NCBI GenBank assembly: GCA_019057385.1
Contig: JAHQJS010000004.1
Coordinates: 820,627 to 884,626 of the forward strand
Direction: 5' to 3'
DNA: 64,000 nucleotides
DNA from: Candidatus Borrarchaeum weybense
GTDB taxonomy: Archaea > Asgardarchaeota > Sifarchaeia > Borrarchaeales > Borrarchaeaceae
This document shows positions 7,464-27,037 of this stretch, piece after piece. A model generated the notes under the pieces. That model had not been told where the DNA came from, ran no database searches, and saw only the letters and a program-made list of their open reading frames with translations. How positions within the stretch are numbered: the first letter of the stretch is position 1; the number at the start of each line of letters is the position of its first letter. The position numbers and the translations under genes were made by a program.

Positions 7464-7706
7464 ATGGAAGAATCTACTCATGATGATGACCTTGTAAAAC
7501 AGTTGAAAGAACTTCAAAACATTATAAACGACTTCGTTGAAGACAAATGTGAACGCAATGAAGTCTTCAAAAAAATTATGTTGGTCTATAAATTCATGCA
7601 AAAGGACATAGCTTCTACCATGGGTGCTATTGCAAGCCCTTGTGGTGGATGTGGCAAGAATATACCCACAAAGACAAAAGAAGCGGAAAAGAGCATCTAT
7701 AGTTAA
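7464..7706 (+). CDS. Small hypothetical protein with CxxC
   Basis: 80 aa, AGGTGA SD 6 nt upstream, PCGGCG motif. Confidence 0.65.
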   Translation: MEESTHDDDLVKQLKELQNIINDFVEDKCERNEVFKKIMLVYKFMQKDIASTMGAIASPCGGCGKNIPTKTKEAEKSIYS

Positions 7707-21897: not shown

Positions 21898-24255
21898 TCA
21901 TTTTTCTAATAACTTTTTCTTTGACTTAGTTACTGCAGGACAAGATGGGCAGAAATCTGTCAAAAATCTGTAGATCCGTTCAATTTCCAATGAATTAAGA
22001 TCGTAAAGCGTAAATAATAATGTATTAATTCTCTTTAGGTGGTTTTGGATATCAGAATCATTAGCGTTAGCTTCAAGAATTTTGTTAACATTTTTTACAA
22101 TTTCATCAATGATATTTTCTTCTGTTGAGGTTTCTGGTAATTTAAGGGGAAGATATCTCAGAATTTCCCTATATTTTATACTTCCTCCAGGAATTACTAA
22201 TCCCCAAAACATTGCTCGATAGTAAAATTCGGCTAATGGGGAATTTAAATAGGCCAAGGCGTATTTTGTTAAAAGATTCTCACGATCCTCATTGTATTTG
22301 TCCTTTAAAAAAAGTAGATAAAGTGTATTGAGGGCGTAAAAAAACTTTGCATGGTCTGGTTTTGAATCATCCCCACCATCATAGGCTACTGTTAGGAATT
22401 TGCTTGTATTTCTGAAAAATAGTTTTTTTCTATTAAAAATAGACGGTTTTTTGGATAGATAGAGCCTTTCATGATCTGTTTCTGGCTTATATTTAAGATA
22501 TATATGCCTCCAGTTAATTCTGTATCGATCTATATCTAAACCATCAATAATTCTTCGATGGCGTTTTTGTTGTAATGATGACAAGGATTTGTATTGTTCT
22601 TCACTGATTAGAACTAATTTTCGCGTCTCTGGGCTTCCAATTCGTATGCATTGCTCAATCTTAAAGACATCTCCCAATAAAGATACCTCATCTTCCATCT
22701 TTTTAATAATCGAATAATATTTTTTGCCTAAAAATGGAGAAAAGATGTTTTCTTGCGTCATAAAAAAGTAAGATTGGGGGAACATCATTACAATATGTTT
22801 TGGTGTTTCTTTCTCAGGAGAGGGTATAGAACTTAACGAGTGTAAATCGTTTGTCTTGAGAACAACTGAAGTTATCGGATCGACCTTTTTATTAGTCTTT
22901 GTCTTTTGAAAAATGTAAATTCCTACACTAACGTCCTGTTTAAATACTGATTCATATAATGCGAGGTTAATCATTTTTTTGATGCGACACTTTTCTAATA
23001 TGTATTCACGCAATGCTCTCCCATATCCACTATAAACCATAAAAGCGGTTGGTAAAAGAAATCCAAGCATTCCATCAGATTTTAAAAGATCGATCGATCG
23101 TTCTATAAAGAGAACATATAGATTTAGACGTCCTTTTGCAGTTCTAAATTTTTTCTGATAAGACTCTCTCTTTTCTTTTGATATTTGTGTAACACCAACG
23201 TATGGGGGATTTCCTATGATGTAATCAAAAGAATCGTCGTCAAGTCCTGATTCGGTCAGAAAATCAGAACAGAATATCGGAGTTTTAGGAAGTACGAATG
23301 ATGGTTTCTCTTGAAGAGCTTTTTTGTAATAAGGCAATAATTCGAGTACAAACCTTAGTTTTGTCATAAGACAAGAAAAGGGATAGATATCGAGACCTAA
23401 AATCTTTGAGCTATTGAATAACTCCTCTAAAACTTGAGACCATCCGAATAATTCGGCATCTTCTGTCACATCTGAGATATATCGTTTCAAAGCCTCTATT
23501 AGAAAAACTCCACTACCACATGAAGGATCTAACAGTTTCTTTTTGTTCAGTTGATTTCCTTTTAGATAACCAACACTATCTAGAATAATTTTAACTACAG
23601 ATAATGGTGTATAAAACTCTCCTAAGTTTTTTCGAATCTGTCTATCTATTATATGTTGATAAAGTTCACCAAAAATGTCAGTTTCTTGAGATAAAGATGT
23701 TTCTTCTAAGAACTTCATCATGTTACTTAAACCAGTTCTCAATTTCTCTAAATGAGATAACATTCTTTCGGGTACGGCTTTTTCGTTTTCGAATTTTTCA
23801 AAAGGTTCAAACCACCAATCGAATTGTTTTTCGTAGGGTTCACTATAGAGAAGATGAGTATCTATTTCGAAAATGAATTGCACGATATCAGTTAAAGATT
23901 GCTTTTTAGAAGCGAAAGCTGCTTGAGAAAAAGGTAATTTGTATTTCTGTGAGAAAATCGCTAGAATGGATTTGAATAACATAACCAGTAAGGTTTCAAT
24001 ACAAAAAAGTGTTTTTTGCGTACTTTCATTCTTCAAACCCACATCGTTTATTATATTTTTCCATGTGCGAGGTATTATTTTGGGTAGTTTTCCTTTGGAA
24101 TACAGTTTCCATTCAGTAAAAATGATTTGAAGTTTTTTTGAATCATAAAGATGATATTCAAACAAAGCAAGCAAAGATTGAACGACAATGTAAAAAGAAG
24201 AATCCTCTTTTAGAGCAAATATTTTTAAAACTTTGTCCTTTGCAATAGAGTCCAT
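21898..24255 (-). CDS. N6-adenine DNA methyltransferase (Eco57I/TaqI-like) with target recognition domain
   Basis: GEFYTP, LDPSCGSGVFL, IGNPPY, LAYLNS TaqI_C-like region. Confidence 0.9.
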   Translation of the reverse strand: MDSIAKDKVLKIFALKEDSSFYIVVQSLLALFEYHLYDSKKLQIIFTEWKLYSKGKLPKIIPRTWKNIINDVGLKNESTQKTLFCIETLLVMLFKSILAIFSQKYKLPFSQAAFASKKQSLTDIVQFIFEIDTHLLYSEPYEKQFDWWFEPFEKFENEKAVPERMLSHLEKLRTGLSNMMKFLEETSLSQETDIFGELYQHIIDRQIRKNLGEFYTPLSVVKIILDSVGYLKGNQLNKKKLLDPSCGSGVFLIEALKRYISDVTEDAELFGWSQVLEELFNSSKILGLDIYPFSCLMTKLRFVLELLPYYKKALQEKPSFVLPKTPIFCSDFLTESGLDDDSFDYIIGNPPYVGVTQISKEKRESYQKKFRTAKGRLNLYVLFIERSIDLLKSDGMLGFLLPTAFMVYSGYGRALREYILEKCRIKKMINLALYESVFKQDVSVGIYIFQKTKTNKKVDPITSVVLKTNDLHSLSSIPSPEKETPKHIVMMFPQSYFFMTQENIFSPFLGKKYYSIIKKMEDEVSLLGDVFKIEQCIRIGSPETRKLVLISEEQYKSLSSLQQKRHRRIIDGLDIDRYRINWRHIYLKYKPETDHERLYLSKKPSIFNRKKLFFRNTSKFLTVAYDGGDDSKPDHAKFFYALNTLYLLFLKDKYNEDRENLLTKYALAYLNSPLAEFYYRAMFWGLVIPGGSIKYREILRYLPLKLPETSTEENIIDEIVKNVNKILEANANDSDIQNHLKRINTLLFTLYDLNSLEIERIYRFLTDFCPSCPAVTKSKKKLLEK

Positions 24256-24452
24256 AGTCTTCCATCACGAATACGATTTGAATCACAGAAACGGTATTTG
24301 AACATCTATACTGATAACTAAACCGTATTTTGACTTATAACTTAACTGGCGAGTAGACTCGTAAAAAAGATAATCTTATAAGGCAAAATATAGAAATATG
24401 AGTTCAAAACTCGACCTTAGGCGGTTGATACTAAGAAACAAGGTGAACGAAA

Positions 24453-24752
24453 ATAGCTTTTGAAATGGATGATATTCTAGCAGAATTAGATAAAGAAAAA
24501 CAGGCATTGAGAATTAGCATAGTTAGACGCAAATATGGGAAAAAGGTCACTCTCCTTTCTGGTTTTGGAATTTCAAAAAGTAAGCTCAAACAAATAGCTA
24601 AAAAATTGAAAAAGACGCTTGGTTGCGGAGGTACAGTAACCGAAGTTAATCAAGAACTTATTATTGAACTTCAAGGCGATTGGCGTAATGATCTTCCAGA
24701 GCTTCTAGAAGCTGAGGGGTATAATGCAGAGGAAATAACCATCAGAAAATAG
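24453..24752 (+). CDS. sui1: Translation initiation factor aIF1/SUI1; start either AUA 24453 or AUG 24465
   Basis: RRKYGKKVT, LKKTLGCGGTV, IELQGD. The SD spacing favours ATA at 24453. Confidence 0.9.
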   Translation: MAFEMDDILAELDKEKQALRISIVRRKYGKKVTLLSGFGISKSKLKQIAKKLKKTLGCGGTVTEVNQELIIELQGDWRNDLPELLEAEGYNAEEITIRK

Positions 24753-25135: not shown

Positions 25136-25385
25136 GTCAATTACCCCACCCTGACGGATGGGGCTTGTTCCGTGAGGAGCAAGAGCAATTAGTTGATTAG
25201 CCTAAGAGAGGTCGTGGTAAAACATGGCGGTATCTACGTTATCAGGAGTGTTAAAGAACACACCAAGGGATGCTTCTCTAGTCCCTTGCTCTGTAAATGG
25301 TGGTTTAAACAGAGAGGAAACTCTCAGTGATCATCGTACAGTACTGACTGATAACCTTGGCGAAGAGAACCAACCTACTTTAATA
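25136..25385 (+). ncRNA. omega-RNA (HEARO-type) scaffold; guide is the 5' flank ending at 25135
   Basis: HEARO-like motifs GTCAA.TACCCC..., GTTGATTAGCCT, CTACGTT, ACACC..GGATGC..CT.AGTC, CTTGGCGAAG directly upstream of iscB; 3' end approximate. Confidence 0.85.
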
Positions 25386-25408
25386 TTCGTTAAAGGAGGA
25401 GATAGGAC

Positions 25409-26620
25409 TTGAGAGTACCTATCTATGTCTTAAACATGAGAGGGCAACCGCTCATGCCTACCACACAACCCAAAGGAAAGAAATTATTACACGAAGGCAA
25501 GGCAAAGGTTGTTCAGCGATGCCCTTTTACCATTCAGTTGAACTATGCAACCGGAGAAACCAAACAACCGATTACACTCGGATTGGACATCGGATATACG
25601 AACATCGGATTTAGTGCCAAGACCGAAAAATTAGAAGTCATCAGCGGCACGTTAATCTTACGACAAGACGTCTCTAACAAGCTAGACGAAAAACGGAGGT
25701 ACCGCAAAACTCGTAGAGGTAGACTAGGGTATCGACCACCTCGCTTTAATAACCGAACACGACCTGAAGGCTGGTTAACCCCTAGTACTCAGCATCGACT
25801 TGACTCACATATTCGATTAGTTGAAAAACTTGAAACACTGCTGCCGATCAGCTACAAGAAGGGAGAAGTGGCTAATTTCGACGCTCACAAAATGCAGCAG
25901 CCAGAAATTACAGGAGTCGCATATCAGCAGGGCACACTTCAAGGCTATGAAGTCAAAGAATATCTGTTAGACAAGTGGGGACGTGCATGTGCTTATTGTG
26001 GTAAAACAAACATCCCCTTAGAAGTCGAGCATATCGTCCCGAAAAGCCGAGGTGGAACAGACCGAGTGTCGAATTTGACGTTATCATGTAGGAAATGTAA
26101 CCTTAAAAAAGGAGATCAGACCGCCGAGGAGTTTGGCTATCCTACCATTCAGAAACAGGCAAAGCAGCCTCTTAAAGCACCGGCATGTCTGAATACTATT
26201 CGTTGGAGGATCGTGGAGCAGTTAGGGGCAGAGTATACTTACGGATACGTAACAAAATACCACCGCAATAAGTTAGGGCTGGAAAAGTCGCATGTTAATG
26301 ACGCATTTGTCATTGCCGGCGGCAAAAACCAAGAACGATGCCTACCTTATGAGGTCATGCAAGTGAGGCGTAATAATCGTTCTATACAGACGAATCGAAA
26401 GGGATTTAAACCGTCAATTAGGAGACAGAGGTATCAGTTGCAACCCCACGATGTGGTAAGCTGTAATGGAAAACCATACAAAGTCAAAGGCGTATTCAAT
26501 TATGGAAGATGGGTACGATTATGCGATTCACAGGGAGCAATCGTCAACGCCACGATCAAACACGTGGTGTTGTTGAAATACGGAAAAGGATTAGTATTTA
26601 CGTTTGAAAATAACAACTAA
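25409..26620 (+). CDS. iscB: RNA-guided endonuclease IscB
   Basis: PLMP motif, RuvC-I LGLDIG, Arg-rich RRYRKTRR bridge helix, RuvC-II E, HNH (CAYCG..EVEHIVP..N..CRKCN), RuvC-III SHVNDA. Confidence 0.96.
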   Translation: MRVPIYVLNMRGQPLMPTTQPKGKKLLHEGKAKVVQRCPFTIQLNYATGETKQPITLGLDIGYTNIGFSAKTEKLEVISGTLILRQDVSNKLDEKRRYRKTRRGRLGYRPPRFNNRTRPEGWLTPSTQHRLDSHIRLVEKLETLLPISYKKGEVANFDAHKMQQPEITGVAYQQGTLQGYEVKEYLLDKWGRACAYCGKTNIPLEVEHIVPKSRGGTDRVSNLTLSCRKCNLKKGDQTAEEFGYPTIQKQAKQPLKAPACLNTIRWRIVEQLGAEYTYGYVTKYHRNKLGLEKSHVNDAFVIAGGKNQERCLPYEVMQVRRNNRSIQTNRKGFKPSIRRQRYQLQPHDVVSCNGKPYKVKGVFNYGRWVRLCDSQGAIVNATIKHVVLLKYGKGLVFTFENNN

Positions 26621-26677: not shown

Positions 26678-27037
26678 ATGGATGAAGAAAATTCTAATGA
26701 AAATGAAGATAAAATGAAATATGTTAAATATGTTGAATTTTTAGATCTTGATAACATGATTAGAGCAATGGTAAGTTCTAGAGCGCCGTTACTTTTGCAT
26801 ATAGACTTTAATGGAAGGCATATATATTTCCAATCCCAACCAGGATTCAAGGAGACAATTTTTTACTATGTTGAATTACCTGAAGCAATTAATGAAAACT
26901 TTGTTGTGTATGACTTAATGACTGGAAAGATTAGTTTTTCAGACCAGCTACAAATAGACCCAAACCGGAGATCAATTCCGATCGTCGAAATATCGAAACA
27001 AAACATTTTTCCTAAGGAGATCTTAGATTCAAAGTAG
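26678..27037 (+). CDS. Conserved archaeal hypothetical protein
   Basis: 119-aa ORF whose AGGTGA SD is supplied by the IscB element end. Confidence 0.7.
   Translation: MDEENSNENEDKMKYVKYVEFLDLDNMIRAMVSSRAPLLLHIDFNGRHIYFQSQPGFKETIFYYVELPEAINENFVVYDLMTGKISFSDQLQIDPNRRSIPIVEISKQNIFPKEILDSK

Follow-up and report, generated by a model that had tools for sequence, protein, structure and literature searches.

In bacteria, translation of infC, which encodes IF3, starts at an AUU codon and is autorepressed (Butler et al. 1987, as cited in PMC4705826), and in eukaryotes eIF1 (SUI1) is made from an AUG in poor Kozak context and is autoregulated (Ivanov et al. 2010; Martin-Marcos et al. 2011, both cited through PMC4705826 and PMC6237735). 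The archaeal ortholog of eIF1, aIF1, keeps 30S complexes from forming on AUU and discriminates against non-AUG codons in S. solfataricus (as summarised in PMC4705826), and it supports start fidelity in P. abyssi (PMC6237735). A full-text literature search returned nothing on the start codon of the archaeal aIF1 gene itself or on near-cognate starts in Asgard archaea. The aIF1 gene of the Asgard archaeon Candidatus Borrarchaeum weybense carries an AUA codon at the position where an initiation codon would be expected, and its layout can be set beside those of the described systems. It resembles infC in that the gene of the start-rejecting factor itself has a near-cognate codon behind a Shine-Dalgarno (SD) motif, and in that the non-AUG codon is kept across relatives. 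It differs from infC in that the folds of IF3 and aIF1 are unrelated, in that AUA, CUG and UUG vary here whereas AUU is fixed in infC, in that an in-frame AUG follows four codons on, and in that the autorepression of infC is established whereas the present case is known from sequence. With eIF1 it shares an orthologous SUI1-domain protein and a suboptimal start signal on that protein's own mRNA, although in eukaryotes it is the context of an AUG, reached by scanning of the mRNA, that is weakened, whereas in aIF1 the SD-positioned codon itself is non-AUG. Other Asgard aIF1 genes with AUU, AUA or CUG are likewise single-copy and have the same SD-plus-near-cognate layout; they encode a zinc knuckle and have no canonical start, whereas the Borrarchaeum gene has no knuckle and keeps a downstream ATG, and because this ATG is retained the Borrarchaeum case is the less forced. 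What the Borrarchaeum locus adds is turnover among three near-cognate codons within one genus, together with further genes of the same genome that have such starts.

The window analysed here is a 64,000-nt stretch of DNA (positions 820,627-884,626 of contig JAHQJS010000004.1, assembly GCA_019057385.1, forward strand), in which the aIF1 locus is made up as follows.

24331-24440, + strand: promoter and 5' leader, conserved (nucleotide diversity 0.11-0.12)
24398-24463, + strand: upstream 21-codon ORF opening with ATG, probably not functional; its TGA is at 24461-24463 and its frame varies among relatives
24441-24446, + strand: SD motif AGGTGA, complementary to the 16S rRNA 3' end ...GATCACCTCCT; AAGGTG is invariant (pi = 0) in 14 Borrarchaeum haplotypes
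24447-24452, + strand: spacer that separates the SD from the near-cognate codon, non-coding; 6, 7, 8 or 9 nt in relatives when counted from the G that ends GGTG; diversity 0.42, like neutral sites
24453-24455, + strand: ATA, the proposed near-cognate initiation codon, 6 nt past AGGTGA; ATA, CTG or TTG in relatives
24453-24752, + strand: aIF1/SUI1 frame read from ATA, 99 codons and a stop (SUI1 Pfam match, 7e-20)
24465-24467, + strand: in-frame ATG, read as Met5 in the long form or else the alternative start of a 95-aa form; invariant in all relatives and 18 nt from the SD

The first-pass annotation had described AGGTGA with an in-frame ATA 6 nt beyond it and the first ATG 18 nt beyond it, and both codons lie where it placed them: AGGTGA is followed by ACG AAA, by ATA, by GCT TTT GAA and then by ATG. 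The genes that it cited for comparison, at 7464, 26678, 49204, 59266 (- strand) and 60689 (- strand), do each have ATG 5-6 nt past AGGTGA. Because the last three letters of the motif (24444-24446) form a TGA that closes the aIF1 frame upstream, this frame cannot open before 24447. The long form would begin (M)AFEMDDILAELDK, that is, M-AFEMDDIL if the initiator tRNA decodes ATA, and the short form begins MDDILAELDK. The ORF at 24465-24752 encodes a SUI1 domain protein of 95 aa (Pfam PF01253, 7e-20; 71.7 bits against a cut-off of 25.5, with residues 12-86 spanning positions 2-76 of the 77-position profile), and it is the one SUI1 gene, aIF1, in the 4.18-Mb genome. No cysteine motif of the CX2CGLPX3CxC zinc-knuckle type was found upstream of the SUI1 domain in any frame. 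Such an N-terminal knuckle is present in 64% of archaeal aIF1 proteins and is not obligatory (PMC6237735), and it is also missing in an aIF1 from another Asgard family (L008) and in several distant homologues.

The 3' end of the 16S rRNA of this genome reads ...GGATCACCTCCT, so that AGGTGA pairs with it perfectly over 6 nt. Since AGGTGA is not significantly enriched in the window alone (34 occurrences against 26 expected), spacing had to be assessed genome-wide. When ORFs of at least 100 codons are considered in the frame in which the TGA of GGTGA is the stop, 65 ATG-ORFs fall at spacer 6, whereas each of the spacers 12 to 30 accounts for about 4. Likewise, among 2525 ORFs with ATG as the first canonical codon, an SD 5-mer is found at an aligned spacing of 4-8 nt before that ATG in 17.5% and at 14-18 nt in 0.8%, which is the background level. 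By this rule the ATA at 24453, which combines a match to 16S rRNA with a functional spacing, sits at the optimum, whereas the ATG at 24465, with its spacer of 18 nt, is at a distance at which SD motifs are no more than chance occurrences. No SD 5-mer lies 4-8 nt before about 82% of the first ATGs of the genome, which implies that SD-independent initiation exists here and would be possible at ATG 24465. We note that the 16S rRNA match itself (L001, G000:C5:332567-335232) spans 2666 nt against a model of 1478 positions, which makes one or more large insertions or introns in this gene probable.

Comparison with close relatives bears directly on which codon follows the SD. Genus-level genomes, together with metagenome contigs and assemblies, yielded 13 distinct sequences of the upstream region, with 87-100% identity at the protein level; the sample is small, its members are related to one another, and attention was drawn to the near-cognate pattern only after the fact. 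AAGGTG does not vary among these Borrarchaeum relatives, and the codon that begins 6-9 nt past GGTG is in all 13 sequences one mutation away from ATG and never ATG itself: ATA in the organism's own group (three independent assemblies) and in L051, CTG in L034, L004, L045, L052, L053 and L054, and TTG in L005, L046 and L047/48. The first-pass annotation had pointed to an alignment of aIF1 upstream regions as the check on its reading, and to ATG at this position in relatives as evidence against it; the alignment has a near-cognate codon at SD distance in the Borrarchaeum relatives and at many Asgard loci, and only ATA, CTG or TTG in the 13 sequences. The middle T of the codon is invariant and positions 1 and 3 vary; conditional on that T, three near-cognate states would be expected with a chance of roughly 6%. 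A tree of the coding sequences has the ATA, CTG and TTG states interleaved, so that at least three changes are needed. Nucleotide diversity is 0 in the SD, 0.42 in the spacer and 0.70, 0 and 0.67 at positions 1, 2 and 3 of the codon, against 0.33 at third positions of the coding sequence and 0.44 downstream. Indels between the SD and the codon are not multiples of three and break the frame upstream of the codon, whereas the stretch that leads from the codon to the ATG measures 12 nt, shortened to 9 nt in L046-L048 by loss of an entire Ala codon, with the frame kept; only the part downstream of the near-cognate codon thus behaves as coding sequence. In the TTG-type relatives the arrangement is an ordinary SD-plus-TTG start, and gene callers give the 99-aa protein MAFEM... 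(P0013, P0016).

Taken with the spacing rule, this pattern suggests that the near-cognate codon of aIF1 is probably used as a start, and we infer that AUA, rather than the AUG downstream, is the main one. As for the claim of the first-pass annotation that aIF1 starts at ATA, the anatomy and the conservation of an SD-placed near-cognate codon bear it out in part, and the invariant ATG downstream could be the sole or an additional start. A suboptimal non-AUG codon is thus conserved across relatives without being the only usable start, and because an in-frame ATG lies four codons downstream the use of AUA is not forced.

We propose that aIF1 would be translated at least in large part from AUA 24453, with the 6-nt SD setting this codon in the P site to give the 99-residue protein M-AFEMDDIL.... 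aIF1 would destabilise initiation complexes on non-AUG codons and, because it rejects such codons, a non-AUG start on its own mRNA should respond inversely to the level of aIF1: with the weak start, synthesis would go up as aIF1 runs low and down as it accumulates, while the downstream ATG may yield a basal, unregulated 95-aa product. The feedback step would follow by analogy with infC and eIF1 and from the biochemistry of aIF1 in other archaea rather than in this organism. We put forward tentatively, as plausible if short of probable, the compound reading in which initiation takes place at the near-cognate codon and this use serves feedback as well.

The chief alternative is that AUA is a real start with no role in feedback, and that this lineage uses AUA, AUU and CUG behind strong SDs on about 1% of its genes as a means of setting expression. 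We think this unlikely, and the evidence that bears on it comes both from other genes of this genome and from other Asgard genomes. In the stretches that lead from an upstream stop to the first canonical codon, an SD precedes 4.9% of CTG, 2.3% of ATA and 2.2% of ATT codons against a background of 1.4% for other codons, a modest enrichment in keeping with such a habit. Six genes are convincing in this respect because their first canonical codon comes only after the Pfam domain has begun: ATT is found directly behind a strong SD in the genes for CofD, an IU-nucleoside hydrolase, a TFB paralogue (the Zn ribbon of which would be cut without the ATT start) and Sua5, ATA in that for an ACS-like CoA ligase, and CTG in that for HcyBio (G000 loci L113, L116, L117, L118, L120 and L122). 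At least six genes other than aIF1 therefore need ATT, ATA or CTG starts, and their near-cognate codons are as conserved in the genus as that of aIF1, with one replacement by GTG and one by TTG. These genes make an AUA start of aIF1 mechanistically credible, and by the same token aIF1 is not alone here in having a weak start or in conserving one. In yeast, start-codon selection is altered in SUA5/t6A mutants, and Sua5, with its ATT start, may be a second case linked to fidelity. We also note that CofD paralogues in two congeners (G002:C193:2192-3136 and G004:C44:11687-12631) lie in frames of 743-745 aa with a single in-frame TGA, which could reflect a fusion, read-through or a selenocysteine codon.

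Against an account in which AUA has nothing to do with feedback stands the distribution of such codons across the Asgard archaea. We surveyed 55 aIF1 loci from 54 genomes of 19 Asgard families and, because the genomes are related, give the counts without test statistics. Thirteen of the 55 loci, in six families, have no in-frame ATG, GTG or TTG between the upstream stop and the CxxCGLP zinc knuckle. The codon in question is CTG in family f4 and in one f7 genome, ATA in f9, in f15 and in one f14 genome, and ATT in f10; it lies at SD distance wherever an SD of at least 5 nt is recognisable, with the SD of f10 being weak or absent (only a 4-mer in most loci). At one locus (L016) ATA stands exactly in place of the Met of the MSEICP found in other families. 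About nine further loci, including that of Borrarchaeum, have the SD on a near-cognate codon with a canonical codon that lacks an SD also available; the remaining starts are GTG or TTG at 7 loci and ATG at about 26. Near-cognate aIF1 starts are thus indicated in at least 8 of the 19 families, with differing codons, against a genome base rate of about 1%, whereas the aIF1A gene, taken as a control from the same genomes, has a canonical start (ATG, GTG or TTG) at 30 of 30 loci. Within this genome, the weak start is shared with at least the six genes named above. Moreover, any non-AUG start of aIF1 should respond to the level of aIF1 whether or not it was selected for doing so. Concerning aIF1A itself, its gene in this genome starts with TTG 6 nt past GGAGG (L093, G000:C5 near 326,350), and roughly half of the 30 Asgard aIF1A loci (L083-L112), read by eye, appear to start with TTG or GTG; it may be that genes for initiation factors more widely have starts that are canonical but weak.

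A further possibility, to which we give less credence, is that aIF1 is translated from ATG 24465 only, as a 95-aa protein. AGGTGA and the NTN codon would then be parts of a conserved leader that serves a different purpose, for instance in promoter spacing, in RNA structure or as a binding or standby site. This ATG does not vary and the full SUI1 domain can be read from it, most genes here have no SD, and among public gene calls for near-identical DNA, which give 95, 99, 102, 117 or 118 aa, most give 95 aa. The whole leader is conserved as well: diversity at 24331-24445 is 0.11-0.12 against 0.33 at third positions of the coding sequence, and the invariance of the SD may therefore reflect another role. 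Pairing of the TTTGAA before the ATG with a TTCAAA in the leader could explain the conservation of the former without its being coding, although no covariation accompanies it. A fold of the leader RNA finds no support in RNAalifold on 12 leaders (-4.2 kcal/mol, with no compensatory pair) or in a single-sequence z of 0.21, and an Rfam scan of the whole window matched no element in the leader, its only match being a HEARO RNA downstream of aIF1. As regards the promoter, TTATAA at 24376-24381 is only a candidate TATA element of aIF1; TATA-like hexamers form no peak near -30 genome-wide, so that the distance from TATA to start gives no calibration by which to place the transcription start. Translation from ATG 24465 only would put the SD 18 nt from its start codon, at the background frequency of 0.8%, and would leave unexplained why a single mutation always separates the codon at SD distance from ATG, why indels disturb the frame upstream but not downstream of that codon, and why the TTG-type relatives have an ordinary SD-plus-TTG start there. 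It is also at odds with the alignment of FEMDDIL, in which the Met matches an internal Met of ...DIFSMDRIL in the knuckle-less aIF1 of another family (L008, G009), and with other Asgard aIF1 genes, which have no such ATG. Deep homologues (phmmer against 1.8 billion representatives; alignment A2) do not decide between 95 and 99 aa since their N-terminal tails are variable, and among them only the FSMDRIL of L008 is suggestive.

We considered as main mechanisms, and rejected, a 117/118-aa N-terminal extension, reinitiation after an upstream ORF and a +1 frameshift, because the upstream frame is not conserved. Of the 13 variants, 5 have the upstream ATG in frame with aIF1, in 5 it opens a frame that ends just before the aIF1 ATG, and in 2-3 it opens one that ends at the SD; L005 lacks it. 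A conserved 15-nt segment is translated in one frame in the 117-aa form and in another in the 118-aa form, from which we conclude that the leader is conserved as nucleotides and not as protein. That the upstream ATG 24398 is the true start, whether of a frameshifted 117-aa aIF1 with +1 slippage on the T run at 24458-24461 or of an upstream ORF followed by reinitiation at ATG 24465, is highly improbable: the ATG is in frame in several relatives, giving rise to the 117/118-aa gene calls, and the TGA at 24461-24463 lies one nt before the aIF1 ATG on a T run that resembles an RF2 shift site, but ORF, shift site and stop are not in register across relatives, no SD precedes ATG 24398, and both the scatter of frames among the 13 variants and the reading of the same conserved nucleotides in two frames are as expected of a non-coding leader.

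If aIF1 is indeed under feedback through a near-cognate start, then in all three domains the factor for start-codon fidelity would be kept in check by a poor start of its own mRNA and, since the archaeal factor is the ortholog of eIF1, the origin of eukaryotic stringency control would become testable in Asgard archaea. One can go further and suppose that the arrangement is the archaeal counterpart, possibly the forerunner, of eIF1 autoregulation, and that the same setting of stringency jointly tunes the AUU, AUA and CUG genes of Borrarchaeum, including those for the TFB paralogue and the t6A enzyme Sua5; we regard this wider idea as rather doubtful. Whatever the function of the weak start, the inconsistent annotation of aIF1, together with Asgard genes left without a proper start, argues that gene callers should accept a near-cognate start in these lineages when a strong SD precedes it.

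Lastly, several features flank the aIF1 gene in the window.

21898-24255, - strand: 785-aa Eco57I/MmeI-like N6-adenine methyltransferase with a TaqI_C specificity domain, divergent from aIF1
25136-25374: HEARO/omega RNA (RF02033, 134.7 bits)
25409-26620: 403-aa RRXRR and HNH protein, following the HEARO/omega RNA

The methyltransferase also neighbours aIF1 in the relatives L045 and L047, and the 209-nt intergenic region between the two genes is unusually conserved. Just downstream of aIF1, the RNA and the 403-aa protein make up a complete IscB-type element (25136-26620). In a close relative (P0009) a gene for a protein of 119 aa lies about 300 nt past aIF1, whereas here a 119-aa ORF is found beyond the element, at 26678-27037; the two 119-aa genes are likened by size, and on that footing the IscB-type element looks like an insertion.
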